Program-made: the position numbers and the translations under genes | Notes under the pieces: model-generated | Seen by the model: only the letters and a program-made list of their open reading frames with translations | Told to the model about the DNA's origin: nothing | The model's database searches: none | Assembly: GCF_036588685.1 (NCBI RefSeq) | Contig: NC_086386.1 | Location: 29,140,001-29,204,000, forward strand | Length of the DNA stretch: 64,000 nucleotides | Source of the DNA: Mytilus trossulus | Taxonomy: Eukaryota | Direction: 5' to 3' | Shown here: positions 1,917-57,930 of the stretch, in pieces | Layout of the letters: the number at the start of each line of letters is the position of its first letter | Position numbering within the stretch: position 1 is the first letter of the stretch

Positions 1917-4900
1917 GTAAATTTCAAAAGATTTCGTTTTAGAAAGCAGTAAGATGATAATATATCCTGATAATATGGTTTGTAGGTTTATTGTATGGCA
2001 ATGAAAGGATTTTTTTACCTTGTTTTAGGTCAATATGGCTGCAAAAGAGGACAAAGTCTTATAAACATTAAACAATACTGAAGATATATTGAACTTTCAA
2101 AAAACATGTTAAAAAAAGAAAAAGTTGTGCAAAAGGAGCATCTTTATAAAGATTTGCCAACATATTTGTTCACAAGCAGGGGATTTAGTTCAACAATGTA
2201 GAATTTGTTTATTTGATTCTCCTTATAGGCATGTTATGCATGAATCAATTGAACAAAGTTTAGAAATTTCTTCTCGTTTTCTCAATTAATTCTATGACAT
2301 TTTTTTTTTATCTCTGTTTATTATTAGCAAATTGATAATTGCACATACATATGGATTCATTTATTTCTGTGGGTACCAATTTATGTTAATGTTTGATTTC
2401 ATAGTTTTGCCAATCTCTGCATACAAAGCTTAAAGAAAATTTGTTATTTGTTAGTTTCCTTATTTTCCTCATTTGTAAGGAGGAGGATAAAGACCTAATT
2501 GTTTTTTTAGCTTCTGAAAGTCAATTATACAGAGAATCAAAAACAATAGAGACAAAAATAGACATATATATATATATAACTCTTCTAAACATCAATCCAA
2601 CAATGTTAGATCTGTAAATTTGCTTTCGCAAATTGTTGGTTCTTCTCTCGCCGGGATTCGAACCCATGCTACTGAGATATTGTGACACCAAATCACCTGC
2701 GATGTAACCGGTGTGCTAGACCACATGACCACCTGGGTTTCATAAAAATGAAGCTTTCCGTGTCCAGGTGTTACCTTGCCACGTCAGTAAGTTTTAATCT
2801 AGCTTTGTACTACAGAACATGATATATAAGACATGAAGATGTTATTTTTTTACAGATCAGCTAAATTATCTATAGTAAAGGATCCTAGTACAAATTAATG
2901 TAATATACAGTCACAGAAATAATTATATTTATAAGTATGTCGGAACCAACAGATTTATCCATCAGATCACCAGCAGTGATGTTGATACATGCCTGTGCAT
3001 ATATATAAAAAAGCATTCAAAAATATTTCAAATTATTTTTTTTAGAATCCCGACTGGAATGAAGACTTTGTGTTTTATACGAGCCCAGAGGATAAATATC
3101 TCAATGTTTGTGTCTGGTGTAGGGTACCACCAAAACTTGATAAACATGAGAAAGTTATCAAACCTGGAAGAGAAACCTTGATAGGGCATGTAAGTAATGG
3201 AAAAATGATAATTCTGCATGTTTTGAAACTAAATAACTTTTTCCATAATTTTTGTTACATGTTTATGTCCTAGCACATTTAATGTTGCCAATTTGATAGA
3301 ATAGCACTTAGTGAAAATAGATTGATTCACTGCAAATATCTGTAATTATCGGAAAACTTTTTTCAGGCATCAGTTGGTTATTTTGATTTAAAATTTATGT
3401 TAAGGAATTTTTAGAATATTTCACTATTGATTATTTTCCTGTTTTCTATCTTTCTATCAATGCTTTTTAAGTCATACATGATACTTTAAACATTTTTTTT
3501 ATTATATTTACCTTTTTTGTAATATAGTAATGAACCTCATTATATATATTATAAAAAAATAATTTCAGAAATAAATCCAAGAAATTCATTTCTGAATTTT
3601 ATTTTTCTTATCACAAATTATCAGTGAGTTTTAATACAAGAAAGAAATAAAAATGTCTTATTCCTTTTGTGTTATAAGGCTTTAAAGTAAAACCAAAGGA
3701 GAAATATTTTTTCCTAAATAATTCAAATACATGTAAGGCTTTTTTTCCTTATTCACAGATCAGTTTGCCATTAGCAGATATATCATTAGATTGTTTATTG
3801 ACAATTCAGAGAGATTCACAAAGATGTGTTAATTTAGTACCACCAGAAAATATAGCTGGGGTTAGGTAAGTAAAAAAATACATATAATTTTACCCAGTGA
3901 TTTAGCTAGCGCTCGTCACTTTCGTATTTTACGAAAAGGTTTTCGAAATGACGAAAATATTTCATATCAATTTCGTCACTTAAATTTGGAAAGTGTAAAA
4001 GTATTTACACATCAAATTACTTGAATTCTACCTGTCTTTATGATTCTGACAAGTTTATGGCCCTCAGGTAATTAACGTTTACCAAAGGTGTTAAAAGTTG
4101 TGATGACAAGTAATCCGCTTATCGCCAATCAGATGGGTCACTAATCCCTTAATTATCATTATAAAACCTCATAAATGACCATCATAATAATCTATTTAAG
4201 TTAAATCAGTCAGTCAGCATTTCATTTTAATCATTTCTCACAGTTCAGTCGTATTTTCATCATTTGAACAAAATTGATAAACTTCCCGGACATTTCAACT
4301 TTATTTAAATTTCAATATTTCCCTTAGGATTATAATTTGCAGTTTGCTTGTCGTAGTTTCGTCATTTCAACGTATTTTCGTCATACTTTATATAAATATA
4401 TTCATCAAAAACTTTCGACAACTTCGATTTAAAAGAATGAACTTTATTCAAAACGTAAATATTTTCACTTGCAAACAGGTGCTTCCTGTTCAATGCATTG
4501 CGCATGCGTAAAAGTTCGTAGATGAATCCGGTTTTATTCTAAAATTATTATTCAATTGTCACTTCCCGTTTTCATTTCATTTCGTTTAAAAATCGAAAGT
4601 AAACGTGATCTACAGTCTAGAGTCATTAGAATTATCCCATTAAGTATAGATGCAGATCCTTCTATCCAATATTAAAGAAATTGATTCCAAATAGATATTA
4701 AAACGTATTTTCAAGGATATAAATGATTGTGAAGTGAAAAAGTCGTTACAAGTTCATTTGTGCAGTGGTTAAAAATAAAGGCACCCAACTTTTGTTGATA
4801 AGGGGTGTGCCCTGAAAATAACTGAAGTGAAGTTTTGACCATATTACCAGATCCCTGTTCTTATCTTCATATCTTAGCATCACATCAGTCAATTCATTCA

Positions 4901-7900
4901 ATATTGCAAATAACTGCCTACATTAGCAATCCTAAAGTCTTCAAAGATCCTAGACTAGTCCTTGAAGGACTTGGACATATATGTATAGCTAGTTTGATAA
5001 ACATCCTAGATCCCTTGCTTTATAAAAAAATAAGGCTGATTTTTATCACGCGCAAAAGTGACTAAAGCCCTCAAAATCCTAGCTAAAACCCTGATTTTAC
5101 CATAACCAAATTCAGTATTTCTTAAACTTATCATGTTCCATCAAAAATAAAGTTGATTTTGAAAAAGTTTATTTTAAGACACTGGAGTGAAATTAAAAAA
5201 AAACAGTTGCTGGATGCTTGCTACAGTTTTATTCAAGCCTGTGACTTCTGTCGCAGAAAGCAAAAGCTCCACATAAGGAAAGTGATCCAGTGGCTGGGTT
5301 GATGTTAGTTCATCTCATAAAAGATTAATATTTTAAAAGGGTGAAGACCTGGATGCTTCATACTTTGTGTATAGATGCCTTATATTACGAAGTTTCTGTC
5401 TGTTATATGTCCATTGTCCTTGACCTCATTTTCATGTTTCAGTGACCACTTGAAAAAAAGTTGAAATTTTTTGTAATGTTAATTTCAAGAATGTGATTTT
5501 TAGTTTGTGCGTACCAGACATTTTTTCAAGTGACCTTGACCTTATTTCATGGATTATTGAACAAGGTTAAGTTTTGGTAGTCAAGTCCACATACCAGACA
5601 CTATAAGCAATAGGTCTTCTATATATTTTGTATGAAATGCTTCTTAAGGCAATGATTAATTTTATTTGTCTTATTTCTTATAATCTATAATCAATAGGTC
5701 AACTATATTTGGTGTACTTTATGATTGTAAGGTGTACATGTATTTCTTGTTTGGTTTATCTGACCTTGATCTTTTCTAGTATCAAGTTTTTGTGAAACTT
5801 GTAGTAAAGGACTATTAACTTAAAATCAATGATTTGTTAAGAAGGCGAGACATTTCAGCATGTGCACTCTTGTTTTCTTTTGCAAAAAAATGATGAAGTC
5901 TTTAAAATATATAAGGTTACTTTTAAATCATGTCATGCAGGTTGAAATTCAACTTGAATATGGTTTTTAAAAGAAATTATGTTTATCACTAAAGGTTCAT
6001 TCACCATTCTGCATGTTCTTTTAAAACTATGACAGTCATCTTTGAAAAAAGTTTTTTTTTTATTTTTTTTTTCTTCAGTCGAACAAAGTTCCAGGAGTAT
6101 ATGAGCCATCAAGGATTTGATCACAGAATGTGTCATGGTGATATCACCCTGGGGTTTAAGTATGGATCAAGTCAATCAGTTGATACAGAGAGGAGAGTTC
6201 CTGAAGTCAAGGTCATCTCAGACAAGGAGAGTTCTGAAGAGTTTGTTTCCTTACCTGATTCATTATTGTTGGGACAAAAAAACAGGTAATTGATACTTTC
6301 AATTATTGAATATGATTTTTTGATGCCCCATTTAAGGGCGTTATGTTTTCTGGTCTGTGGGTCTGTTTGTTTGTTCGTCCGTTCGTCCGTCTGTCTAGCT
6401 TCAGGTTAAAGATTTTGGTCGAGGTAGTTTTTGATGAAGTTAAAAGTCCAATTATATTGAAATTTAGTACACATGTTCCTTATGATATGATCTTTCTAAT
6501 TTTAATGCTAAATTAGAGATTTTACCCCATTTTCAAGCTCCACTGAAAATAGAAAATGATCATGTGGATGGGGCATCCATGTACCTAGGAAATATTCTTG
6601 TTCTTAATACATTTCCTTAGACTTCTAGGTCAAAGCCATAATTTGACCAGGTTTGACTCACAAAAATTGTTAGGAGATATTGCATACCTAATTTCCTTAT
6701 GATTTGATGCATATGTATGACTGAATTTATAGATAAAAAAAAAAGAGAAAACTAGTACAAATGGTGATTATTAGTCCCAAGCCAGCAAAGGGAAAACAGA
6801 ATGTTTGTACAATAATGTAAAATAAATATATTTCAGATTAGAGATTGGTAAACATGACTTTACAGCTACCCAGTTTACTTCAGCTACTTACTGCCATTTC
6901 TGTGGGAAAAAGGTTGGTGTACAGAAAATAAACAAAAAGACCTTCAGAAACGAAATAAAGCTAAAACACTGATCAAACAATCAAAATACTCTTAAATAGC
7001 AGAAATGTCAAATTGAATTTTGCCTTCAGAGAAAAAATGATCTAAAAACAACTGTATTATTTAGTGTTTGGACACTTCGGTAGGAAGAACTTATTTGAGG
7101 GTTTAAAATTAAATATGAATAATACTATGAAATTAATTTCATACATAATGTTTTTCCATACACAAAATGCACTTTGTGTCTGCATATAGGAAAAATTTCT
7201 AACTTTAGTTTTCCTCAACCAGATGTTATGAAACCTATGCACAATGCTTATTATCATAAAACATAGATGGAGTTTGAAATTTGATGGTGTCAATTTTATC
7301 ATCTAGTTTTTTTGTTATGCCCCTTTACAAATTAAAAAAATGCTGATTTTTTTCTCTTCTGTTTTCTAACTTTAAACCAAATGTTATGAAACTTATACAC
7401 AATACTTATTACTATAAACCATAGATCAATTTTAAATGTTGATGGCATCACTTATATCTCCTTTACAAATGGAAAATTTGTTGAAATTTTTGTTTCTGTT
7501 CTCTATCTTTAGTTTGCATGAGTCAAATGTTATAAAACTTATACACTATATGCTTATTACCACAACACACAGGTCAAGTTTGAATTTTGGTGTCCTTCCT
7601 TCAAGTTTTCTAGAATTCTGCTCCTTAACAAATTGAAAAATTCCTGAAATATATGTTTCTGGTCTCTAACTTTAGTTTGCCTCACCCAAAATAATAAAAC
7701 TTATGCACTGTGATTAATACAATAAAATTACGATCAAGTATAAATTTGGATAATGTCTTTTACAGTTCTTTAGTTATATCCCTTTATAACTTTTTATGCA
7801 AGTAGAGGCATCATCTGTGTCCCATGGACACATTCCCTATTTATTTTGTTTTATTTCCACTCCCTGTGTATAGTAACATTAAACTTGCATCTATAGAACA

Positions 7901-35544: not shown

Positions 35545-36630
35545 AAAGAACCTTAGTGAGCACGCTCACATACCCCACGTTCCCACATTGTCATTGGAGA
35601 AATCAAATAAGTGTAAGGAAAAAATTGTATAAGAAAAAATATTGAATAATAATTTCCTGTCAATATGCACATCTACATGCATAGTATGTCCTTATTATCT
35701 ACAAAATTTCATGAAATTCTGTTGTGTGGTTTCAGAGGAGTTGAGATGACAAACTGTTGCAGAAGTACATTGAAGCAAATAAGTTCAACTCCTAGAAAAA
35801 AAATGAATCAAAATTTCTTGTCTAAATGCACATCTAAGTAGTATGTCCTTATTATCTACAAAGTTTCATGAAATTCTGTTGTGTGGTTTGAGAGGAGTTG
35901 CGATGACAAACTGTTGCAGTAGCACTTTAAAGTAAATAGGTTCAAAGGGGCGTTACTCCTAGAAAAAAAAATTGAATCGCAATTTCCCGTCGATATGCAC
36001 AACTACATAGTATGTCCTTATTAACTGAAAAGGTTTCGTGAAATTCTGTTTTGTGGTTTGAGAGGAGTTGCGATGACAAACTGTTGCAGTAGTACACTAA
36101 AGTAAATAAGTTCAAAGGGGCACAACTCCTAGAAAAAAAAATTGAATCGCAATTTCCCGTCGATATGCACAACTACATAGTATGTCCTTATTATCTGAAA
36201 AGGTTTCATGAAATTCTGTTGAGTGGTTTGAGAGGAGTTGCGATGACAAACTGTTGCAGTAGTACACTAAAGTAAATAAGTTCAAAGAGGCGTTACTACT
36301 AGAAAAAAAATTGAATCGCAATTTCCCGTCGATATGCACAACTACATAGTATGTCCTTATTTACTGAAAAGGTTTCGTGAAATTCTGTTGTGTGGTTTGA
36401 GAGGAGTTGCGATGACAAACTGTTACAGTAGTACACTAAAGTAAATAAGTTCAAAGGGGTGTAACTCCTAGAAAAAAAATTGAATCGCAATTTCCCGTCG
36501 ATATGCACAACTACATAGTATGTCCTTATTATCTGAAAAGGTTTTGTGAAATTCTGTTGAGTGGTTTGAGAGGAGTTGCGATGACAAGAAACAGGACTGA
36601 CGGACGGACGGACGGACTGACAGACGGACA

Positions 36631-43135: not shown

Positions 43136-44530
43136 ATGAACTATCATCTGCATTTTTTAATGTCAATATACTTTGGACTTTTACACACGATAGTGGAAAG
43201 TGGAGGTAAATTTGTATTTCTCTTGGTAGTAACTGGGGACAGTTTATCTGTTCCTAGTATTTAAGTAAGCATATCAATAATTAGTCCTATGATATATGAC
43301 TTCGCATTATATATTCACTATTTAACGTTTTTTTATATGCTCGGGTAGCACATTGATAATATAAAAAAAATAAAAAATTAGCAAAATCAGTAAAAGGAAA
43401 TTGAAATAGAAAATAATGCCCCCGAGTTCATATATTATAGGACTAATTAATATTATACCAAAACAATTTATAATAATCATGGGATTTTAAGAGTGGATTT
43501 TTATTTCAAGAGTGCATGAACTTCAAGTGGGTGCAGACTAGGACGGATATGTACAATATAGTAGAATTTATCTGATACTGTTAGGTTTGCTTTTCATAAA
43601 GACTACGGTTTACACTGGTAATCCCTGCAAATTCGATTTTACGTTTCGCCATATTATGTATTAGCGTCTGTGTCTAAAGAGAACCCAGAAATGCATGAAA
43701 GAAGATAAGAATTCATCTTAAAAGAATCAAAATATAAAAATATCTGACTATCTGCGTAATAAGAACCTGAGAATTAAATAAATATGATTATTTGTTCTTA
43801 TCATAGGGGTTATTTAGGACTTGTTAGCGCTTGTAATGAAATACATTTTCGAAAAACATGTATGATGCATCAAATTAACTGCGTTTTTTTGTTGTTATAA
43901 TTATTGTGTTTTACAATTAGCGCTCGTATTCCCTGATACATGATGATACGTTCTCAGACGTTTGTTACTAGAAGCCATAAATAATATATGAATATTTAAA
44001 AACAACATTATATATTTAATACAAGTTATAATTCAGTAAATCAGTACCTTCATATTGTAGATACTAAAATGAATATGGTGTTGAGAGCCTTAATGTCTCC
44101 GACGCCACTACCAACTACAATGCCTCCGACGCCATCACCAACTACAATGCGTCCACTGCCTTCAATGCCAATGATACCCCAGCCACCAAGATGTGTTTAT
44201 AGAGGACAAACATATCGTTTTGGTGAGATGATTCAACAGGGACAATCAGGAAACTGGTGCCATTTCACAATGTGTGACCTTTCAGGGCAAATCATACATG
44301 GGGATGACTTCCACTGTTCTACAACTACATTACTCCCAACTACAAACTTACCACGAACCACAACACCACGTGGATGTTTCTTTGAAGGGAGACATTACCA
44401 ACTCGGGGAACAAATATCAAGCGGACAATCAGGAAACTGGTGCCATTTTTCAATGTGTGACTATTCAGGTCAAATCCATGGTGATGTCTTTAACTGTTTG
44501 GCAACCTTACGGCCGACAACACCAACATAA
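43136..44530 (+). CDS. Small secreted Thr/Pro-rich protein with two 4-Cys repeats (~179 aa; exons 43136-43205, 44061-44530)
   Basis: Exon 1 encodes a signal-peptide-like MNYHLHFLMSIYFGLLHTIVESG with a gag|gtaaat donor; phase-1 acceptor ttgtag| at 44061; repeat C.(Y/F).G..Y..GE.I..GQSGNWCHF.MCD.SGQI.HGD.F.C; AATAAA at 44562. Confidence 0.78.
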
Positions 44531-47182
44531 TACATTGTACATATAGGCTGATCAGTTCAATAATAAACTCAGTCGTTTTTACGTTTTCATAGTTGAATCA
44601 CTTGTTTACAGTCAGGATTCTATATGTACTTCGTCAAAATTATCTCACCAGTACGCCAGTTAATTTTTACAATCGTAGAAATTGAAGCCATTGTAGGGAT
44701 GATTCACTCCCAATTTAGCTCTTTATTTTATCCAAATAGCACCATTACGATCCTTATTTATATGTCAGTTGTATTTTAAAAAACCAACGTATCTTCTAGC
44801 TAATGAGTATAAGTTAATGTTCGTGACTGCATTGAGTCAGAGACATATAATACATTATACGTCTCTGATTGAGTCAACTTAAACTATTGTCTGATCGGTT
44901 GTCAGGTGGAATTTTCGAAAATTCATAAACATTTAAAAAAAAATCTAATTAAATATTTTGTGGAGGGGCTGACTAAGAACGTTCTTTGGTTGAAGACTTT
45001 AAGCCCTAATTATCACATACACAAAGTTATGTTTGTTCGAAGATATGCATTTTCATCCTTCAACTTGAAAGACTGTCGTAAAGTACTTTTAGTCATTGAA
45101 AAAATAGATTTTCGAACACCTACACTTTTTTGTGATTCATTAGAAAGGTATTTCACTTGACCCATTATTTCATCTTTTAGTACTGTGCTGTGAATTTCTT
45201 ATGTTATGAAGTCAACCTGTAGCCTCCGTCCGTGGGAGAGAGAGAAAAAAATAAAATCGGTGGTTATGCATTTTCTACATTCAACTTGATAGATACTCAT
45301 GTCGTCGGCTTGATATCTAATTGTTCTGCTTTGTAATATAGATAAATTGAAAACTTATGCAAATGGTGTTTTAAAAATAAAATTAAGAGATAACTGTATT
45401 AAATTATATTTGAAGCCATTTCAACCGTACCGGCTCAAGAAACTTAATCTCGTTGAGATGACCAACGGAACTTGGAACATATAATAATCGATTTATTCAA
45501 GTATGTCAGATTTCCCGAGTTACCTGTCATACTGCATTTTTATGGTAATTTTAGACAGTAGTTTCGGTGATCCTATAAAAAAGAAGTCTTATAAATAACC
45601 GTTTTAAAATGTTTCTAATTTTGATCTTATTTATTATGCTTTCAATTATACAACCCCTTGATTTATCAAATATTAACATTTTTGTTAAAAAAAAAAAGAG
45701 GCTTTCAATATATGCTATCTGATTAGCCGGCAAAGCTGTATCACGAATATATTGACTACTTTTCTGTATTAACTGGTCTCTTGTTGAGAGTAACGCTGGC
45801 GGATCTAGAATTTTTCGTAAGTGGGGGCCCACTTGCGGCATAAGAGGAGGCCGCGCCAGTCACGCTTCAGTGATTCCCTATATAAGCAACCATTTTTTCC
45901 CCAAAAAAAAGGTTGGGAGAGGGCGGGCCCCTGGGTCCTCTAAATCCGCCTCTGAGTAATACCTCATTGGCACCATGTCTTCTTATTGCGATATCCTAAT
46001 ATGGAAGTCCCTAGCAATTGCCACCATGGAGAAAGCTATCTGTGCATGTAATTGCCACGGTAAATAAATCTAAATTAACCAGCTCATGGGGCGTCTTTTC
46101 CGAAATACTCATCTGGACATGCAAATTACAATGCAAGAAATCTTGCAATGACCATGCAAGATGTGCCCGGAAACAAAGGCTTTTATTCTAAAAAATTATC
46201 AATATTACCAATGTTTGCAGAGTGGATGAAGCACAATAAAAAAAAAAACTAGATGAACCCGTGATTGATCGATGTTTTAATTTGAATATGAATACTGCAC
46301 CTTAATTTGATCTAATTCATAAAAGACCAACACACTGGACTTGACCTTAAGCTAGCCAATATAAAAGAAAATATCCACAGAAAAAAAAATCACTCTATTA
46401 GTATCTGGATATATTAGTATCCTGACTGCGGGTCGCTTACTCATCGCATTTACTCCTAATTGCATCTTGCTTAGCAGTGGCGGATCCACGGGGTGTTCCG
46501 GGGGTTGGAACCCTCCCTTTTTGGGGGCCGATCAATGCATTTAAATGGGGAATATTATAGTTGGAACTCCACCTTTTATCCTGGGTCACGAACTGGAGAC
46601 CAGCACATTAACACCTAGCAACATCCGAAAGAGTCTTCCTTGGATCAATGTCAAATAGGACAACCTATGAATAAAACATTTATGCCTAAGAAGCGCTCTA
46701 TTTGTTTGTTATTCCTCCAAGCTTTTAGTATTCGAAGAAAGGTCGAACATTCATCATTCGAGGTTTGATAGAAATACCAAACATTCAATATACTATACCA
46801 AATAAAATCACAGAATCAAAACATCCATACTATCTTGTAACTTGTAACTTGTATATCGTAACTTCCTCCAATAAAGGAGCACCTCAATCATGAGTATTCC
46901 ACCACCTTGTAAATGTACATGTTTATCTCTAAATGATTAAAATATAAAAGTCACACTGGTAGACATCTATCATCATTAAAAGGAATATTAAAAGTGGTTG
47001 TATATACATATGTATCGGCATAAAAACTTGAGGTAATTCAATGTCATGACATTTAAAATCTAAAATATATTTTCTCGATATTTACAGTTTATTTACACTG
47101 ATGTTGATCCGCGGAAATCGGTCTTCTGTATATTTGCTGGTTTTATTTAAGATAGTTAGCTTTTATCTGTATACCACAGTGT

Positions 47183-47540
47183 AGTGTGGCCACGTACCCA
47201 CGCTTACTGCTTCAAAGGATTTTATTGGGCTAAGTTGTAGTAAGTTTCAGTAAAGTGTGGCGAGATCCACGCTTACTCTGTTATAAACAATGACAAATAT
47301 TTAGCCTCTTCAATAAAGTGTGGCGAGATCCACGCTTTTGTTGTGTTGACGTATATGTGTTTGTATAAGAAGGCATTATGGATCAGTTAACAAGTGTGGC
47401 GAAATCCACGCTCATTTTGTAATAATGTTGAGGACGCTTCATAGTTGTGTCCCAAGAGTGTGGCGAAATCCACGCTCATTTTGCAATAATTTTGAGATTG
47501 CTTCGTAGTTTTATCCCTAGAGTGTGGCGTAACCCACGCT
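47183..47540. repeat. Array of six 20-22-nt hairpins AGTGTGG-N6-CCACGCT in the LINE 3' UTR
   Basis: Copies start at 47183, 47254, 47317, 47393, 47457, 47521, separated by 43-56-nt mostly unrelated spacers. Confidence 0.9.
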
Positions 47541-47562
47541 CAAGGTATCTATTAAGCTAACT

Positions 47563-50500
47563 TCATGTTCGATCGATATCATTGAGAATTCTTGACCTGC
47601 TTGTGTGTAGTAGAAAGCATAGTCTCCTTGATTGAAATTCTATGTCCATTAGGATTGATTTGTCACATCTGGGTTCCAGTAATCCAATTGTGCTTGAATC
47701 AACTATCACTTGGATAAGGCCTACTTCGCTACCGTTGTTTTTGAATTGAATACGGAGCTTTTCGTGTAGCATTTGGATATTACTCAAGATTGATTTTCTC
47801 TGGTTCGACAGCGCAGGACAAAGCAGTAGGAAATGTTCCAAGGTTTCATCTGATGTTTGGCACAAAGGACAAGTTCCCATTAATCCTTTGTTTTTTGAAT
47901 GCTTTGTTCTGTCAGCCATGAGTATATAACTTCCTGTTGCTATTCTTAATTTTACGGGTATTCTCATAGCTTCTTGCATGGAATTACTAGCAGATAGGTT
48001 TACTAATACATGTGTCTTCCCTGGTATATATTGAATATTTAAATACTTTAGTGAGGGGTATAGTTTACAATGACCCTCGATAAAATGTTTCCAATACTTT
48101 GATACTTCTTTATTTACCATGGTCTTCCATTTTAATTTTTGAATTTGACTGTCTAATACATGTAAAGCTGATGGTAAGTTGTATTTCGCTAGAATCGTTT
48201 TAACAGTGATAAACCAGCTGTGACTATCATCCGTTTTCATAAGTAGTTGTCTGTATGCAATTTGTTTTTCTAAACTATCATGTGGTTGTCTAGATATATT
48301 TCCAAATAATGACAAGATCTTTTTATGTATTTGACCCTCTATTGGTAGTTGTCCAGACAGAATGTATATGGCGGGCGTAGCTGTACTTGTTGGTAAAGAA
48401 AGTAACTGCTTTATACATTTTTTGTGGAATATGTCAATAATATCAAAGTTTTTTCCTGTAGGAGTTACTAATTCCAGGCCGTACAGAAGTACAGGGATGA
48501 CATAGATGTTAAATATATGTAGTAATGACTGTATGTCCAGTCCATTTTTCCCATGCAAACCAGCTGGCATAAGACTGTACATGGCTCTTCTAGCCTTTTT
48601 AACGTTTTCATACAACGGATTAGGATCATCTGGTTTTGATGTGCGCAAGACCCCCATATGGGTTGTTTGGCTAACTATTGGCATTATTGAGTTACCTATA
48701 CTCCATGGAAAGGAAGGTTCTTTCTGTTTTCTACGATTTGGATATACTGGTAGAATAACACTCTTCACTGGTTGAAGCTTATATCTCTCCCTTCGACTGT
48801 AGTTGTATGCCATGTTAATGAGTACCTGTAGTTCCTCGGGGTTGTCACTCATTAGTGCCACATCATCTGCACAAGTTGGAGCTGCGCAGCAAATAGATCC
48901 TATTTTTGCTCCTAATCCAGAATACTCGATATCTGTTAGGAGATTGTTGATGTACAGCTTGTACAGGTCAGCGCTCAGTATACCACCTTGTTTTACGCCT
49001 TGACATATTGAGAATGGTTCAGATATTAGACCATTAAATTTAACTACACTGCTAGAGTCCATGTGAAGACTATGTATAAGTTTCCATAGTAGTCCATCTA
49101 CACCTGCTATGTATAGCTTTCGTAGGATACTCTCGTGCGTTACCACATCAAATGCCGATTTAGCATCTAGAAGCGATATATATATTATTTTACCAGCATC
49201 CCTGCATTCTCTAATAAATTCTTCAATGAAGAAGGAGCAATTCATTGGAGCTGAGTTCTCAGTAAATCCTCTTTGTAGCCTATTTTGTTCTTTCAATATT
49301 TTAGGTTGGACCTTAGCCTTTGCTACAGACTCAATTAGTTTCAGCAGTATTGACATGATAGTAATCCCTCTGTAGTTGGAAGCATTCTTGTTACTTCCTT
49401 TGTTCTTGAATACAGGAGTGAGGAGACCCTTTTTAAGTATTTCAGGTATTAATCCTAATTTAAATGATGATACTATCATATTTGTTATTACTGTTTGCAG
49501 CTTTTCCCCACCATATTTGATATTTTCAGAGGATATGCTATAAATGTCTGGAGATTTGTTTATTTTCAATCCATTTATGGCGTCTTGAACATCTTTTTCT
49601 GTTACAGAGATGGTATTAGTTTGATTGTTACATATATCAATTATATTGTCTAGATCTAATGCTAACTGTTTGTAATATTCGTCGTCATATTCAGGATCAA
49701 TTGCTGGTTGCGCTAATTTGTTGAAATGATGTTTCCATCCAACTATAATTTCATTGTCAGATTTATAGATATTATCTTGTACATTCAGTTCGGATATACA
49801 ATTCTTCAGCTTTCCTTTTTTTTTACCAAGTAACTTGTAAAATATTTGATCATGTTTAGTTCTAGCATCTAAAATTTCTTGTCTATCATTGAGGACTTCC
49901 ATCGCTATCTCTATTCTACATGTTTTTCGAAGTTGATATTTCGCAGATTTCATATCACAGTATATTTTGTTGTTTGGTGATGTCGGTCTTTCATTTGCTT
50001 TCCATTTTGCAAAAGCTTCTTTACATCTTTTACTTGCTTGATTTGTTTGAAAGGATCTTATCTTAGGTTTTTGTTTCTTTCTCTTGTATACCTTGGGTTT
50101 AGGAGCTGATTCTATTGCTGCATTTTTCATAATGGTATTAACTTGTGTCATAACTTTAGTTAGCTCATCACCCGATTGAATCTCACTTGAAATGGCTGTT
50201 AGTGACTTGTTAATATTCTCCTCGTATAGATTCACGTCAATAGTACTCCATTTAATTTTTCTATTGGTAGGCAATATTTTTGTACTTTGTTGCCTATGTT
50301 TTATTTTGACGTTTAGTCTGCAGGTTATATGATAATGATCAGAGACTAAAGAACTACAGGAGTCAAGTTTAAGAAAACCGGAATGGTTCTCAAACAGCTC
50401 TTTGTCTAGTAATATGAAATCGATAGAAGATATTTCTTCATGCTTGTAGTTTATGAATGTTCGGCCCAGATCTTTTGTATATAAGCGATGGTCCTCCATT

Positions 50501-51120
50501 AGTGCTTTGACTGCCTCGTAGCGTTTTGATTCACTTTTGTCAATTATGTTTTCATTTATATCGCCACCTATAACAATATGATGTGTGTTATTGTATTGAG
50601 AGCAGAGCGAATGAAGTTGTTCTGTACAATCTAGAAATTCAATCAATTTTTCAACTCTATTATCCTTGCATGGCATATAAACGCAAATCACTAGAATGTC
50701 TTTACCACATGTATTTGTTATTTCAATACATTGGATTCTGTTATTAGTACAGTCTACCTTAGTGATTTTGTGATCGATAGTCTTTTTCCATAATATGCAA
50801 ACTCCACCGTATCCTCTTGGTAAGTGGGTAGGTGGTAGCGGATCATCGGAATCAACTGCTTTTCCAATACCATTAAAATCAACATGAATATTTTCTAAAA
50901 GTGGTAGCTGACAGTCGAATAGCCAGTGTTCTTGCAGCAACACAATACAATAGTTAAAAAGAATTTCAGAGAATAGTGGATCACAGGTTTTAATATTTTT
51001 ACAGTTAAAAGATAAAATGTTTAAATGGTAAACTTTAAAATCGCTATTTACATTTCTCGTTGCTGTAGGTACTAACTTCCGTTGTGTAAAAGTCTTTCCT
51101 GATGAAAAAAATTTTGATCC
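47563..51120 (-). CDS. LINE ORF2: AP endonuclease + reverse transcriptase + C-terminal CCHC finger (open frame from 51120; no in-frame AUG before the endonuclease)
   Basis: LNILSFNC..LLQEHW, GGDIN, IDFI, SDH (APE); YRGITI, LDAKSAFD, GVKQGGILS, CADD (RT); CPLC..ETLEHFLLLC; no internal stops. Confidence 0.95.
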   Translation of the reverse strand, partial: GSKFFSSGKTFTQRKLVPTATRNVNSDFKVYHLNILSFNCKNIKTCDPLFSEILFNYCIVLLQEHWLFDCQLPLLENIHVDFNGIGKAVDSDDPLPPTHLPRGYGGVCILWKKTIDHKITKVDCTNNRIQCIEITNTCGKDILVICVYMPCKDNRVEKLIEFLDCTEQLHSLCSQYNNTHHIVIGGDINENIIDKSESKRYEAVKALMEDHRLYTKDLGRTFINYKHEEISSIDFILLDKELFENHSGFLKLDSCSSLVSDHYHITCRLNVKIKHRQQSTKILPTNRKIKWSTIDVNLYEENINKSLTAISSEIQSGDELTKVMTQVNTIMKNAAIESAPKPKVYKRKKQKPKIRSFQTNQASKRCKEAFAKWKANERPTSPNNKIYCDMKSAKYQLRKTCRIEIAMEVLNDRQEILDARTKHDQIFYKLLGKKKGKLKNCISELNVQDNIYKSDNEIIVGWKHHFNKLAQPAIDPEYDDEYYKQLALDLDNIIDICNNQTNTISVTEKDVQDAINGLKINKSPDIYSISSENIKYGGEKLQTVITNMIVSSFKLGLIPEILKKGLLTPVFKNKGSNKNASNYRGITIMSILLKLIESVAKAKVQPKILKEQNRLQRGFTENSAPMNCSFFIEEFIRECRDAGKIIYISLLDAKSAFDVVTHESILRKLYIAGVDGLLWKLIHSLHMDSSSVVKFNGLISEPFSICQGVKQGGILSADLYKLYINNLLTDIEYSGLGAKIGSICCAAPTCADDVALMSDNPEELQVLINMAYNYSRRERYKLQPVKSVILPVYPNRRKQKEPSFPWSIGNSIMPIVSQTTHMGVLRTSKPDDPNPLYENVKKARRAMYSLMPAGLHGKNGLDIQSLLHIFNIYVIPVLLYGLELVTPTGKNFDIIDIFHKKCIKQLLSLPTSTATPAIYILSGQLPIEGQIHKKILSLFGNISRQPHDSLEKQIAYRQLLMKTDDSHSWFITVKTILAKYNLPSALHVLDSQIQKLKWKTMVNKEVSKYWKHFIEGHCKLYPSLKYLNIQYIPGKTHVLVNLSASNSMQEAMRIPVKLRIATGSYILMADRTKHSKNKGLMGTCPLCQTSDETLEHFLLLCPALSNQRKSILSNIQMLHEKLRIQFKNNGSEVGLIQVIVDSSTIGLLEPRCDKSILMDIEFQSRRLCFLLHTSRSRILNDIDRT

Positions 51121-52016
51121 CTATAATTGTTTAATCCTGGCCTGGGCACCTCGGTAGGTGTGTATAAAATTGGACAACCATGAACAAGTTTCGATCTATC
51201 TTGCAAATTTATCATACCCGGTGTAATCATATCTGAGTTATTCGTTAAAGAAGGTTGATGTTTTTGCATTGCTTTCCCTTCTTTATTGCTTGGTGTGTAA
51301 TAATTATATTGCAATGATTGATATACCCGATTTTGAGGAGGCTGTTGTACGACATTTATTGCTGGAGGTGGATGAGAGACATGATACTGCGGAGGCTGAT
51401 GTGCTCTATTTATTGTCGGTGGTGGATGAGAGACATGATACTGTGGAGGCTGATGTATGACATTCATTGCCAGAGGAGTAGCCTCAGAATTTCCAACAGT
51501 GCCTCTATGTACTGTGTTTGTGTTGGTATACACATGTTCCTTTGCAAGTGTTTCATTTGTGTTCCCTTTTGGCAGCATATCATTTATTACGGTTGACTGT
51601 ACAGGTATTTGTTCGCTTTCGATTTGGTTTATTTGAGCATCTACTTTCTGCAGTATGAGCTTTGTCATTCTTTCTCGCATAGCTAGTAGCAAATTATCTG
51701 TTTCAGTGACACATTTCTGGTGACAGCAGTTTTGTACTGGTGAGTTGGTATCTGTTCTTTTGGCTTCAGACTCGGTATCTTCTAGTACAACTATTTTTCT
51801 GTTAAGAATTCTTATTGTGTTGTCTAGTTCTTTTATTTTAGTTTCTTGCATGAGAATGGTAGATTGAAGGCGGATATTTTCAGCGTTAAGTTCTGAATTT
51901 CTCATTTCCCTCAATCGGATGTCGTCTTCTCGTTTCTTTAATTTTAACTCTAGTTGTCTTAAGTCTTTAAATTTAATTTGTTGGTCATCAGTAGGTTTGT
52001 TCTGATTTGTACACAC
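51072..52016 (-). CDS. LINE ORF1b: coiled coil + Gln/Pro/His-rich low-complexity repeats
   Basis: 314-aa ORF; heptad-rich LRQLELKLKKRE...; HQPPQYHVSHPPP repeats; -1 frame relative to ORF1a. Confidence 0.75.
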   Translation of the reverse strand: MCTNQNKPTDDQQIKFKDLRQLELKLKKREDDIRLREMRNSELNAENIRLQSTILMQETKIKELDNTIRILNRKIVVLEDTESEAKRTDTNSPVQNCCHQKCVTETDNLLLAMRERMTKLILQKVDAQINQIESEQIPVQSTVINDMLPKGNTNETLAKEHVYTNTNTVHRGTVGNSEATPLAMNVIHQPPQYHVSHPPPTINRAHQPPQYHVSHPPPAINVVQQPPQNRVYQSLQYNYYTPSNKEGKAMQKHQPSLTNNSDMITPGMINLQDRSKLVHGCPILYTPTEVPRPGLNNYRDQNFFHQERLLHNGS

Positions 52017-52069
52017 ATCTTCTGTTTTGTTATTAGGTATTATACTTTGTTCAGCGATTGTGCTGTTTT

Positions 52070-53329
52070 TTAGTTTGCTGCTTGTATTTGAGTTCTTTTT
52101 TGTTTTTTTGTTCTTGAAATATTGTCTACTTGTGCTTTTTCTACTGTCATATCATTGTCAATACAGATTAATGGAGTTTCAGTTTGACTACCATATGGTG
52201 TTTTGATGATTGTTTCATCATGCTCATTATCAAGTTCCTTTGATGTATCATAACTTGAGTCTTTCTTGACTTGCTGATCTTGTATTTCTAGGCCAAAGCA
52301 TGCTCGACATTTTTGTGTTGTGCAGTTTGTAGCTATGCATGTTAAGTGTACAATATTGTTACAGCTATCACAGACAGTTTCATCTGAATCTAATATATTA
52401 TTGTCACAATTAGAGCATATTTGCTCAATTCTTTCTTCATTCAGTAGTATCTCTGCACTGGTTGCCATTTGTGAATTTATTAAGGCTAAACATTTTTGTG
52501 TTGTTTTCATCATGCTAATGTTGTCAATTTCATGAGTATTAGTTTGGAGTGATGTACTTGAACAGGTGTTTTCAATAGCAGTGCTAGTTGGATTTGGACA
52601 GGATGAACATGTGTATGACGTGTTGTTATTACTTTCAATTTTGTCAATATCAATCCGCCTAAGACCTTCACACATATAGTGCACCCACATTTGGCAATTG
52701 TTGCACTGTACAGCCCTTGTGATAACATTTCTATTGCATTTTCTACATCTGGTTTTCATGTTGTTATCGGTTGATCTGTTATCTAATATGTATTGCAATT
52801 GATCTTCCAGCAATTTATTAATAGTACTAGTATTCATTTGTTGGTTATTTACATAGGTATTACATATCATGCCGTGGATTATTGGTAATTCATTTTCAAT
52901 AAAATGAGTTATGGATTTTCCATTAATCAATAAGGTAGCTTTTGTTGTATAGGCATTTATGGTATAGGATTGACCGCTTTTTAGTTGAACCTTAAATGTT
53001 TTTTGGACTAATACACCTCTTCTATCGTGTTCAGATTGAAATGTAACTTCACCTGTCGAAATCGGATAGCATTGATAATAGCTAGATAATGCAGCAATAA
53101 ATAACTCGAATGTTGCCAGATCTAATGTAACTGTGAGCCCTCCACTAGTCATTTTATATGAGATATCAGTCCTCTTTGCTGATTCTAGTTTGTTTTGTAG
53201 AACTTTATCTATATCAAGAGAGTATGTTTTGGTTTTAGTCTGATTTTGTACTTGATTGACATGGTTGTTATCCTGTATAGTTTTTGAATTAACAACTATT
53301 TTTTCACTGTTATTAGTGACTAAGGCCAT
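52070..53329 (-). CDS. LINE ORF1a with two PHD-like zinc fingers
   Basis: CRKC..QCNNCQMWVHYMC..YTCSSC and CSNC..VCDSCNNIVHLTC..CRAC (C4HC3). Confidence 0.85.
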   Translation of the reverse strand: MALVTNNSEKIVVNSKTIQDNNHVNQVQNQTKTKTYSLDIDKVLQNKLESAKRTDISYKMTSGGLTVTLDLATFELFIAALSSYYQCYPISTGEVTFQSEHDRRGVLVQKTFKVQLKSGQSYTINAYTTKATLLINGKSITHFIENELPIIHGMICNTYVNNQQMNTSTINKLLEDQLQYILDNRSTDNNMKTRCRKCNRNVITRAVQCNNCQMWVHYMCEGLRRIDIDKIESNNNTSYTCSSCPNPTSTAIENTCSSTSLQTNTHEIDNISMMKTTQKCLALINSQMATSAEILLNEERIEQICSNCDNNILDSDETVCDSCNNIVHLTCIATNCTTQKCRACFGLEIQDQQVKKDSSYDTSKELDNEHDETIIKTPYGSQTETPLICIDNDMTVEKAQVDNISRTKKQKRTQIQAAN

Positions 53330-53374
53330 TCTGATAAGTAACCTGTTTCAAAGTAGAATAATTTTATTCAGCTA

Positions 53375-53795
53375 AGTGTGGCGTAACCCACGCTTACTTT
53401 GTGTTGTTGGTTTATTTTTTTTTTTTTTTTTGGTTTTTTGCACCAGTTCTGTCGTTTTGCAGTTTAGTGTAGTGAAACCTACGCTCACTGCTCTAAAGTA
53501 CGAATAGGGAATATAATTCAAGGTTATTCACAGCTTTGCATATAGCTTACAGCAAAAGTATCTATTGACCAAACTCCTGTTGGTAGACTAAAAACTATGT
53601 ACACATATATATATATATATAGCAATAAAATCTTTCAAGTGTGGATACAGATGTTAATAACAGTTTTGAACATGTACCAATATAGTGTGGCGTAACCCAC
53701 GCTTACTATAAATAAAGAAGCAGCATAACTAAATGTTGTATTTATTGGTTGTATCTAAAATATATTATACAGTGTAGTGTGGCGTAACCCACGCT
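53375..53795. repeat. Second cluster of four of the same hairpins, between the SGNH ORF and ORF1a
   Basis: Copies at 53375, 53466 (compensatory G-C to A-T pair), 53684, 53776. Confidence 0.9.
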
Positions 53796-53828
53796 TACTG
53801 TATTGTACAATGCAGGTACACAGCTTGT

Positions 53829-54694
53829 TTAATTAGAAGTTTCCCAACAGTCCTTAATTATTTGTTGTTCAATTTTTCTTAACCAAACTTTTGACAGTAG
53901 CTGTCGTGGATGTACACCATCAAAGTACAGTTCAAACCTATGCTGCACCCGTCTTGTGACTCTGTGGCGATCACCTTTCCTGTGCTTTTGTATTAATGTA
54001 AGATCAGAGCTAAATTTTGGAGAGTAGGAGATATTGCTTGTGTTAACTTCTCTGATTTTTCTGTTAACACTGACTATTTGTTCTTCTAAATCTTTGTCGT
54101 GTTGATAGAAACTTTGAATCTGATTTTTACTTATTCCAGCAGCCCAATTCCAATTGACAATTGAATATAAAGGTATTTCCAGTATCGTTACTTTAGACCC
54201 TGGGTGTGCTTTGATGCATTGTGAAATTAAATTAGCTTCGGCTATTATATCGTCTACAACTGAATCGTCATGGGTTCTTAATGATATGTATCGCCCGTTT
54301 TTTATAGTAAAGTCACATGTACCAGCCCATACATACTTTAATCATTCAAACATTTTCTGTGCTTTATTTTGTAATTCATTCATTTGATTGTATAGCTCAA
54401 ATTTTGGGCACCATGATTGGTTAATGAAAATTATCTTATCTTATCTTATACCCATATATTTCCCTCTTCTTGTATTAGGTCGTCTATGGAGCTCTCCAGC
54501 CACTCTCTACACTCTCTAATTCTAGCACCTTTTCTACAGAACCAAGTAAAATCTCGCTCTGTAGTTGTTGATGCTTGGGATTCCAAGTTATACCCCTTAC
54601 TGTCAGTGATTATAATGGGAGTATATGTTTTAGTCCCAAGTGGGGCGAGCCTGCTCCTTTGCAGAAATTTTGTTAATTTTCTTTGAATTAACAT
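53829..54694 (-). CDS. Stand-alone SGNH/GDSL-type esterase ORF (~250 aa), interrupted by a ~113-bp insertion at 54336-54448
   Basis: ATG at 54694; IIITDSKG (block I Ser), RKGA (block II), VWAGTCD (block III), FDGVHP (block V); segment 54335-53829 is a 169-codon open frame that the ORF track misses. Confidence 0.82.
54336..54448 (+). mobile_element. Short retro-insertion (LINE/SINE 3' tip) with (CTTAT)n tail inside the SGNH ORF
   Basis: Ends TTATCTTATCTTATCTTA; removing it restores the in-frame NIWV|YVWAGTCD. Confidence 0.7.
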
Positions 54695-55215
54695 GTATGT
54701 TGAGATATAATATAGAATATATATGTTTCTGTTTATGGTATTGTAATCAAGGTATGAAGTAACTTTAACTTTCTTTTGAAGTTCGCGGACAGGAAGTGCA
54801 CGGACCCCGCGAAAGTCAAATTGAGTTGTGTGATATTCGTCTCAACTGCTTCTATTTCAGATAAAAAGTGTATATATATTGGCTTGTTTTGTAGTTTTTC
54901 ATAAATGTCACAAGATTGTTTGTTTTATATGTTCAATAACACACTATACAACACAAAAATCATAGAATATTCCCTGCACCGCAAAAATGTATCAACCACC
55001 ACCATTCATCACGTGAAACATTCAATATCATATATGCATATAACAATAAGTTTTTCTATCCTTGTTTTTGTTTCATATCTCGACTTTCTTGGTATTGCAA
55101 AATGGGTGCTGCTTTCAAAGGAGATACTGAACCAAAATTTTAACAAATTAAAGTTGCTTCTTTGAAATTATTATTATTATGTCGTCATGCTGCACGATTT
55201 TATTAACTGTTATAA

Positions 55216-56986
55216 CAACAAGAGGCTCTAAAGAGCCTGAGTGTGTCGCTCACCTTGGTATATATGTGAATTAAACAAAGGAAGCAGACAGTTCATGACA
55301 AAATTGTGTTTAGGTGATTGTGATGTGTTTGTACATCTTACTTTACTGAACATTCTTGCTGCTCACAATTATCTCTATCTATAATGAACTTGTCCATGTA
55401 GTTTCAGTGGAAAATGTTAGTAAAAATTTACAAATTTTATGAAAATTGTTAAAAATTGATTATAAAGGACAATAACTTCTTAGGGGTCAATTGACCATTT
55501 TGGTCATTTTGACTTATTTTTGAGTCTTAAATTGCTGTTTACAGTTTATCTCTATCTATAATAATATTCAAGATAATAACCCAAAACAGCAAAATTTCCT
55601 TAAAATTACCAATTTAGGGGCAGCAACCTAACAACGAGTTGCCCGATTCATCTGAAAATTTCAGGGCAGATAGATCTTGACCAGATCAACAATTTTACCT
55701 ATTGTCAGATTGCTCTAAATGCTTTGGTTTGTGAGTTATAAGCCAAAAACTGCATTTTACCCCTATGTTCTATTTTTAGCAGTAGCGGCCATCTTGGTTG
55801 GTTTGCCCGGTCACAAAACACAATTTTTAAACTAGATAGCCTAATAATGCTTCTGGCTATGTTTGGTAAAATTTGGCCCCGTAGTTTCAGAGGAGAAGAT
55901 TTTTGTAAAAGTTAACTAAGATTTACGAAAAATGGTTAAAAATTGACTTTAAAGGGCAATAACTCCTAAAGGGGTCAACTGACCATTTTGGTCCTGTTGA
56001 CTTATTTGTAAATCTTACTTTGCTGAACATTTTTGCTATTTACAGTTTATCTCTATCCATAATAATATTCAAGATCATTTCCAAAAACAGCAAAATTTCC
56101 TTAAAATTACCAATTCAGGGGCAGCAACCCAACAACGGGTTGTCCCATTCATCTTAAAATTACAGGGCAGATAGACTTGACCAGATAAACAATTTTACTC
56201 ATTGTCAGATTTGCTCTAAATGCTTTGGTTTTTGAGTAATAACCCAAAACTGCATTTAACCTCCATGTTCTATTTTTAGCCCTGGCGGCCATCTTGGTTG
56301 TTTGGCCGGGTCAAAAAACACAATTTTTAAACTAGATACATCAATGATGATTGTGGCCAAGTTTGGATTGATTTGGCTTGGTAGTTTCAAAGGAGGAGAT
56401 TTTTGAAAAAGATCATGGAGATTTACGAAAAAGGTTAAAAATTGACTATAAGGGCAATAACTCCTAAAGGGGTCAACTGACCATTTTGGTTATGTTGACT
56501 TATTTGTAAATCTTACTTTGCTGAACATTATTGCTGTTAACAGTTTATCTCCAACTATAATAGTATTCAAGATAATAACCAAAAACAGTAAAATTTCCTT
56601 AAAACTACCAATTTAGGGGCAGCAACCCAACAATGGGTTGTCTGATTCATCTTAAAATTTCAGGGCAAATCTTGACCTGATAAACAATTTTACCCCTTGT
56701 CAGATTTGTTCTAAATGCTTTGGTTTTGAGTTATAAGCCAAAAACTGCATTTTACCCCTAGGTTCTATTTTTAGCCATGGCGGCCATCTTGGTTGGTTGG
56801 CTGGGTAAAAAAACACAATTTTTAAACTAGATACATCAATGATGATTGTGGCCAAGTTTACTTTATTTGGCCCAGTAGTTTCAGAGGAGAGAATTTTTGT
56901 AAAAGTTAACGACGATGGACGACAGACGACGGACGCAAAGTGATGGGAAAAGCTCACTTGGCCTTTTAGGACAGATGAGCTTAAAA
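55216..56986. mobile_element. Helentron/HINE-like element with ~3 tandem units of ~495 bp
   Basis: GGTTAAAAATTGAC..AAGGGCAATAACTCCT recurs at ~55445, 55935, 56435; (GAC)n microsatellite and AGCTCA..TGAGCT terminal inverted repeat. Confidence 0.78.
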
Positions 56987-56989
56987 CTT

Positions 56990-57930
56990 GACATTGAGCA
57001 ATCAACCGTGTAAATGAGGTCAAGGTCAAATAAATCCTGTGAGACTGACATGTTCATCATACAATATTTCCATACATCAAATATAGAAGACCTATTGCTT
57101 ATTGTATTAGAAAAAAGACCAAAACTCAAAAACTTAACTTTGACCACTGAACCGAGAAAATAAGGTAAAGGTCAGATGGTACCTGCTTGTTGGACATGTA
57201 CACCTTACCATCATGCCATACACCCAATATACTAAACCTATTGCATACAGTATAAGAAAAGCAGATCAAAACACAAAAACTTAACTTTAACCAATGAACT
57301 ATGAAATGAGGTCAAGGTCAGATGACACTTGCCAGTTGGAAATGTACACCTCAAAATCCTTTCATACACCAAATATACAAGACCTATTGCTTATAGTATC
57401 TGAGATATGGACTTGACTCACATATTATCTTACAATCCTTCCATACACCAAATATACAAGACCTATTGTTTATAGTATCTGAGATATGGACTTGACTTGA
57501 CCAACACTTAACCTTGTTCACTAATCCATGAAATGAGGTTGGGGTCAAGTGGAAACTGTCTGATGGTGACGAAGACCTTGGAAGGTACGCACATACCAAA
57601 TACTGCTATCCTATTACTTATAATAAGAGAGAAATTAACATACAAAAATCTTAGCTTTTTTTTCAAGTAGTCACTGAACCATAAAAATGAGGTCAAGGAC
57701 AATGGTCATGTTACAGACAGAAACTGCTTAACATATGGCATTTATACACAAAGTTTGAAGCATCCAGGTCTTTCAGTCTGCTGGCTTTTAATATCCAAAA
57801 GTTGTGATTGAGTTATTTCTCTTTGTATAGAAATTGGTTTTTCTTGTCGAGCTTAGGACTTTTGTAGCAGAAAGCTCAACATAGGGATAGTTATCCAGCG
57901 GGCGCTGCATTAGCTATCTTCTTAAAAGCG
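56990..57930. repeat. Degenerate interspersed/tandem repeats (AATGAGGTCAAGGTCA family; inverted relative at 5235-5875)
   Basis: Recurring ATGAGGTCAAGGTCA and CATACACCAAATATA..AGACCTATTGCTTATAGT blocks. Confidence 0.6.

Follow-up and report, generated by a model that had tools for sequence, protein, structure and literature searches.

Esterase ORFs are known from several LINEs, namely CR1, L2/ZfL2-1, and RTEX (PMC3905857 and PMC13343379, in their accessible text), and LTR elements and Penelope-like elements of bdelloid rotifers have GDSL esterase ORFs in common (accessible text of PMC5408684). The esterase of ZfL2-1 binds acidic phospholipids, and the isolated protein did not bind oligo-A RNA (PMC3905857, in the portion available). 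Unrelated retroelements keep capturing such esterases; membrane binding has been shown for one of them, and we found a reported RNA partner for none. Bivalves are rich in RTE-X and Proto2 elements, which classifiers confuse with each other (available sections of PMC10294476), and the tails of algal RTEX elements are tabulated in the part of PMC3747384 available to us (Table 3). Our literature search, with most subscription journals and Repbase Reports outside its coverage, returned no paper that links repeated hairpins to the esterase of a retroelement. The words "hairpin" and "stem-loop" do not occur in the accessible text of PMC13343379 or PMC5408684, and the 12 of 33 supplements of PMC10294476 that were searched gave no hit. 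LINE esterase ORFs and their sharing across retroelement classes are already known; within the scope of this search, the multi-copy RNA tags that we propose in linkage with them appear new.

The window, the 64,000-nucleotide stretch of Mytilus trossulus DNA that was analyzed, holds on its minus strand a whole non-LTR retrotransposon of about 8.2 kb with three ORFs (46835..55025). Its bounds were taken from the contigs of four runs, in which contig depth is not copy number: depth climbs toward the 3' end, loose contig ends fall at 46839/46840 in two runs, and a single low-depth contig joins 46830 to 55026 across an empty site. Together these place the element at about 46835 to 55025. A candidate 4-bp target-site duplication (left copy 46831..46834 on the plus strand, right copy 55026-55029) is read from that one low-depth contig. 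ORF2 (47563..51102, minus strand) lacks a leading ATG, overlaps the end of ORF1, and carries an APE endonuclease, a reverse transcriptase (RT), and a C-terminal Cys/His motif. Its match to PF00078 is clear (E = 2.7e-19), and that to PF03372 (E = 0.002) falls short of the curated cutoff; homologs have both domains. ORF1 (51072..53329, minus strand), with a PHD finger, is a single long ORF in relatives and is split in the window copy, into frames 53329-52070 and 52016-51072. ORF0 (53829..54694, minus strand) corresponds to a stand-alone protein of the SGNH/GDSL fold, in which DSK, GTCD, and DGxH blocks and also a basic loop are present; in the window copy it is disrupted by a high-copy insertion of 113 bp (54334..54446, unstranded), which the contigs of two runs skip.

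Endonuclease and RT lie together in ORF2, as in APE-RT non-LTR elements, and the family is multi-copy and 5'-truncated, with a 7-bp simple-repeat tail and no long terminal repeat. The esterase upstream of ORF2 and the short tandem-repeat tail are RTEX traits, and we provisionally label the RT RTEX-like. Like the esterase-bearing CR1, L2/ZfL2-1, and RTEX elements, as far as their accessible descriptions go, the window element places an SGNH protein ahead of an APE-RT ORF and a PHD finger ahead of ORF2, and it ends in a short tandem tail. It differs from what those descriptions report in that the SGNH protein is a separate third ORF, in the GTCD form of block III, and in a hairpin-bearing non-coding spacer before the PHD ORF. 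Named ORF2 homologs (42 to 49% identity) are from Mytilus and Pinctada, and others occur within clam-symbiont MAGs, where we read them as host contamination. Three bacterial MAGs (G001, G002, and G004) contain many animal retroelement contigs, with 43 LINE matches in G001 and 15 in G002, and these contigs are host contamination. Contigs of one run labeled as possible RNA span most of the element, although such contigs show neither strand nor level.

All ten hairpins found in the window belong to this element. The earlier note had described six of them, with periods of 71, 63, 76, 64, and 64 nt, and the copy starts (47183, 47254, 47317, 47393, 47457, and 47521) bear this out. They form a cluster on the minus strand (47183..47540) that begins 22 nt past the ORF2 stop. 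The exact motif has nine matches in the window and none in 100 shuffles, and a tenth hairpin, at 53466, was recovered when up to two mismatches were allowed; it carries a compensatory change from G-C to A-U. The note had placed the array in the 3' UTR. This holds for six copies, but four more (53375, 53466, 53684, and 53776), oriented identically to the 3' cluster, lie between ORF0 and ORF1 in an intercistronic cluster (53375..53795, minus strand) that begins 33 nt past the ORF0 stop, so that the hairpins are not confined to the 3' UTR. The letters of the motif are present as written, but they are those of the plus strand, antisense to the ORFs; the loop of the first 3' copy has 8 nt. Stem extensions with differing flanking letters, also described earlier, were found again.

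The spacers had been called mostly unrelated and the array unlike a satellite, and both descriptions hold. Among the 21 pairs formed by seven spacers of both clusters, only the last two 3' spacers align clearly (0 of 500 shuffles reach their score) and one further pair is marginal (4 of 500). The clear case is a recent 64-bp tandem duplication (47393..47520, minus strand), of which minority contigs of two runs lack one unit; it is the single homologous unit pair, where a satellite or minisatellite would have whole units homologous between copies. The hairpin is conserved beyond its spacers, as claimed: in the window and ten ORF0 elements, core identity was 0.87 to 1.00 and flanks were within 0.10 of shuffled sequence. 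Linkers around the hairpins are A-rich (44% A and 12% G on the sense strand). A search of Rfam with the region 46000-55500 gave four chance-level matches, none on the hairpins and none at gathering score. Between two intercistronic hairpins, a run of about 20 A's on the sense strand (53401-53444) lies 80 to 100 nt upstream of the ORF1 start. Beside the 3' end of the LINE lies a very high-copy short element (46475-46570). Its start looks like the hairpin core with a loop of 5 nt, a likeness that is probably accidental.

Stringent LINEs carry a recognition stem-loop near their 3' end (PMC3747384, in the accessible part), and the array is likewise made of short hairpins in a LINE 3' UTR. That stem-loop is single, adjacent to the tail, and RT-clade-wide; the array, unlike it as described there, is multi-copy, also intercistronic, and missing from ORF0-less RT relatives. 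Relatives at 40 to 48% ORF2 identity terminate in a conserved region, where two small stem-loops are predicted, and in a short tandem tail. The terminal motif was found in 10 of the 12 tails searched, the window copy being at 46848-46907, inside a conserved stem-loop region with a 7-bp tandem tail (46834..46907, minus strand) that is likely the RT recognition end. The array ends 280 nt before these stem-loops. Because the usual terminal structures sit that much further on, the array is not the RT recognition site, and it is absent from RT relatives that retain them. Upstream of the terminal stem-loops, the window (46900-46920) and many relatives have a short motif resembling GGTG(A/G)TGG; it often follows GTAAATA and is repeated in some cases.

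The distribution of the array within the RT family is narrow. The exact motif of the window was clustered in none of 112 RT-related loci, it had 6 matches in five symbiont MAGs against 12 for a reversed control, and no relatives were found among viral contigs. In an RT tree composed of unnamed loci only, the window falls in a supported 12-row clade in which ORF0 was otherwise detected only in L008, some of the other contigs of this clade being too short on the 5' side to reveal an ORF0. The earlier note had proposed that the hairpins load ORF1p or ORF2p, or are precursors of small RNAs of about 65 nt. Six 3' UTR copies at fairly regular spacing in a multi-copy family fit such a function, but the terminal stem-loops and tail are separate from the array, the nearest RT relatives lacking ORF0 show no array, and Rfam gave no gathering-level match. 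Similar arrays also occur in BEL/Pao and gypsy elements that have ORF0 and neither LINE ORF1 nor ORF2. Spacing in other elements is irregular, from about 40 to more than 500 nt, and three copies in L080 lie within a reading frame, so that processing into units of about 65 nt is not favored. Both loading and small-RNA production are therefore very improbable.

The three-ORF layout is common to four RT relatives, three of which have GTGG-N6-CCAC hairpins directly past the ORF0 stop. We examined a close-ORF0 set of 21 elements, 18 from an ORF0 profile search of five MAGs plus L066, L080, and L109, spanning LINEs that we take to be CR1-like, one BEL/Pao element, and gypsy-like elements. By eye, 15 of the 21 had at least two copies of their own hairpin, although in three of these (L141, L145, and L149) duplication of a longer unit accounts for some or all of the repetition. 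Another four had a single copy (two being only candidates), and the remaining two lie on contigs without untranslated regions. A scripted detector that required unrelated flanks, with thresholds fixed after the core/flank comparison had been seen, was positive for 11 of the 21 (L148 scoring on a different motif) and for 4 of 50 ORF0-less control loci with at least 500 nt preceding the first ORF (Fisher test; P ~ 1e-4, on rows that are non-independent, drawn from about four host sources, with some control loci duplicates or fragments). None of the 62 remaining ORF0-less loci was positive, nor was any of 6 distant-ORF0 loci; a scan restricted to Watson-Crick pairs overlooked bulged homologous hairpins. 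These observations suggest that the hairpins track ORF0 and not the RT.

The position of the hairpins is free. The gypsy-like L147 has two copies past ORF0 and six past pol, which is the layout of the window, and L148 has five past the end of the integrase. L080 has one copy past ORF0 and three in the low-complexity 3' end of ORF1 (6455-6804), and in L194, L149, and L151 copies lie upstream of ORF0. Such free positioning argues against translational coupling and against fixed-length processing. Copies near to and far from ORF0 match each other within the element in the window, L080, L147, L151, and L194, and since the far copies match the hairpin of their own element, linkage alone is no explanation. 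The bdelloid GDSL ORFs are comparable, in that an accessory ORF of the SGNH/GDSL kind passes from one retroelement class to another, unrelated one; unlike those ORFs as far as the accessible text of PMC5408684 describes them, the window-type ORF sits 5' of gag or ORF1 and comes with iterated, element-specific hairpins.

Several other loci were set aside or noted during this comparison. Hits in L153 and L154 and one in L194 were dropped as tandem or coding repeats, and the hairpin scores of L146 and L155 arise only through duplication of the element or its LTR. In L080 the hairpin motif at the ORF1 end is kept while being translated. The ORF0-less LINE L173 has at least 11 hairpin copies inside longer diverged repeats (minus strand, ~3300-6400), and L173, L172, L176, and L170, all ORF0-less LINEs, have non-coding spacers of 2 to 6 kb between ORF1 and ORF2. 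In the distant-ORF0 elements L125, L136/L195, L137, and L154, a GTAAGT that resembles a splice donor lies at the stop codon of the ORF0, directly past it, and a small GCC/GGC hairpin comes next.

The ORF0 protein has, according to structure prediction, an SGNH fold. The model of the L066 homolog (pLDDT of 92) matched GDSL/SGNH hydrolases (E = 1e-7 in Foldseek; best Z of 17.0 in a separate structural comparison), and PF00657 matches 6 of 33 aligned members. By alignment, the Ser, Asp, and His of the catalytic blocks appear retained: the Ser and DxxH are kept, and block III reads GTCD instead of GxND in 33/33. A 25-residue loop before the DGxH block carries 4 to 9 K/R in all 33 members, and most members are basic overall. 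No solved structure was found by sequence with the ORF0 profile. The Oskar OSK domain also has an SGNH fold and belongs to a protein reported to bind RNA, its SGNH-like domain binding RNA with low specificity for sequence in vitro (PMC12005264, in the accessible sections). It aligned to the ORF0 model at rank 24 (PDB 5a4a; Z of 14.0, rmsd of 2.6, 162 aligned residues), which puts it no nearer than typical GDSL hydrolases. The ORF0 tree groups the BEL/Pao element L144 with the CR1-like L140 and L141 (96/93), and in it L008, whose RT is of the window type, groups with CR1-like ORF0s at weaker support (93/92); the window ORF0 has no supported placement. No further genome came out of ORF0 searches in two symbiont families, of 122 and 301 genomes.

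The hairpins of nine elements share one register, where four pairs are followed by a pyrimidine-purine wobble and then a G-C pair (9/9). The wobble is U.G in eight elements and C.A in the window; a protonated C.A pair can mimic U.G. MAFFT had placed the window hairpins out of register with those of the other elements. The upper stems vary in sequence, yet they pair at 36 of 36 positions, against 26.1 when 3' arms were swapped between elements (1 of 100,000 permutations), in a test that is partly circular, since the elements were chosen as hairpins. Among the window copies, L066, L080, and L109, covariation is thin because three of the four core pairs never vary, and a compensatory change occurs in one copy only. 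An internal A.A mismatch is common to L144 (BEL/Pao) and L140 (CR1-like), and the hairpin of L008 has the U.G form, as in the CR1-like elements it joins by ORF0.

The proposal of the earlier note that these are iterated binding sites agrees with the conserved cores, the shuffle-level flanks, and the homologous hairpins elsewhere with changed yet paired stems, and on these sequence comparisons selection appears probable. A neutral origin would instead have short duplications or template switches spread a GC-rich palindrome, so that conservation reflected recent copying. The 64-bp unit, recently duplicated in tandem and polymorphic among copies, and the whole units duplicated in L141, L145, and L149 are of the kind that such copying leaves behind. 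It is nevertheless improbable: near-identical cores persist over 6 kb while their flanks are at shuffle level, nine elements repeat the register with different letters, and the hairpins are rare in ORF0-less relatives. The hairpins are real and more general than the earlier note had supposed, and its interpretation is partly supported overall.

As to the strand that matters, the evidence points both ways. Read on the sense strand, variable stem positions hold G.U more often than A.C, by 8 to 1 (hand count, L145/L148 left out), and at all six stem positions the count is 18 to 5 (again without L145/L148), but counted per element the bias is 11 to 5 and not significant (P = 0.21). In the window the array folds better antisense (z of -4.3) than sense (z of -2.1), and the conserved wobble reads as G.U only antisense, as it does in L066, L080, and L109. 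The better fold of the plus strand, which would be the cDNA sense, the Y-GNRA-Y form of five of the six 3'-cluster loops on that strand, and the almost invariant core letters could be taken to mean that the motif acts as DNA, either as palindromic duplex sites for a dimeric protein or as hairpins of first-strand cDNA. We give this only a small chance, since the variable wobbles favor G.U on the sense strand and would not be selected by double-stranded DNA; antisense GNRA loops were also rejected as a general feature, the pattern being absent from L066, L080, and L109. General pairing between the 5' and 3' parts of the RNA was clear only in L007 among 17 loci. There, about 22 nt of the 5' leader (454-477) are a near-perfect reverse complement of the ORF2 end (6446-6468) and could pair the RNA ends.

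We favor, at a probability of about one half, a reading of these sequences in which the hairpins are repeated docking sites on the sense RNA, read by the element's own ORF0 protein. Hairpins that are multi-copy, free in position, and alike within an element, and that sit in A-rich linkers, look like docking sites, and the link between hairpin and ORF0 across element classes points to ORF0p as their reader. Each element would keep several near-identical hairpins of its own in unstructured A-rich linkers wherever room exists: past the stop of ORF0, past that of pol or ORF2, within the 5' leader, or in an ORF end of low complexity. ORF0p would dock on them, possibly via its basic loop, and the docked protein could tie the full-length RNA to membranes or to an RNP compartment. 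The functional form as RNA, the binding by ORF0p, and the membrane or RNP role are what we infer from the pattern as a whole. The 10 of 21 ORF0 elements that are detector-negative and the 4 ORF0-less loci that are positive count against ORF0p docking.

The sense-RNA sites might instead serve a host RNA-binding protein that ORF0 elements need in order to transport, stabilize, or protect a transcript in which a stop codon lies upstream. The shape and the A-Y-U-G-like loop, common to unrelated element classes, would suit one conserved reader, and many copies lie directly past stop codons. A precedent exists in the bulged stem-loop of the I factor LINE, which is read by Egl-BicD (PMC13186709, in the accessible part) and which resembles the case proposed here in being an RNA stem-loop recognized by shape, with more than one signal per RNA. 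Egl signals, as the available text defines them, require two helices, each 6 bp or longer, with bulges on the 3' side and U-A pairs spaced at fixed positions, whereas the window-type hairpins are shorter (predicted upper stems of 4 bp plus the wobble, lower stems variable), G-C rich, and tied to an element-encoded ORF. The copies upstream of ORF0 in L149, L151, and L194 misfit a role linked to stop codons, and the form of the hairpin tracks the ORF0 tree in at least one comparison across classes. A host reader is thus rather unlikely.

Docking by ORF0p may extend to a portable two-part module, made of an SGNH-fold reader and a self-specific, multi-copy RNA tag, that moved between mollusc retroelements of the LINE, BEL/Pao, and gypsy kinds. 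With it, each element would label its RNA as its own, for attachment to membranes or transfer from cell to cell; we put this forward tentatively, as possible. RNA phages such as MS2 have a coat-protein operator and dispersed packaging hairpins. By analogy only, those hairpins resemble ours in having a small stem, an internal bulge or wobble, a short loop, and several copies on the genome that encodes the candidate reader; they differ in that the candidate reader here would have an SGNH fold and no particle is known. With an element-specific, multi-copy hairpin that travels with the esterase, the idea can be tested on a protein of 240 residues and an RNA of 30 nt, and exchanging hairpins between elements would probe specificity. 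If the module is real, retrotransposon esterases would have a defined RNA ligand, and protein-hairpin pairs orthogonal to one another would be available as a natural set; the module would also bear on how cells handle the RNA of three-ORF LINEs.

Outside the element, the window contains a fragment of an integrase core (PF00665, 38943-39287), a remnant of another mobile element. A short ORF (44069-44530), probably a host exon, contains Pro/Thr-rich repeats as well as a pair of Cys-rich repeats at a distance of 183 bp. Three tandem arrays were also found, at 35632-36587 (169 bp), 55442-56916 (498 bp), and 57070-57399 (146 bp), which presumably recall the Helitron-associated satellites of bivalves.
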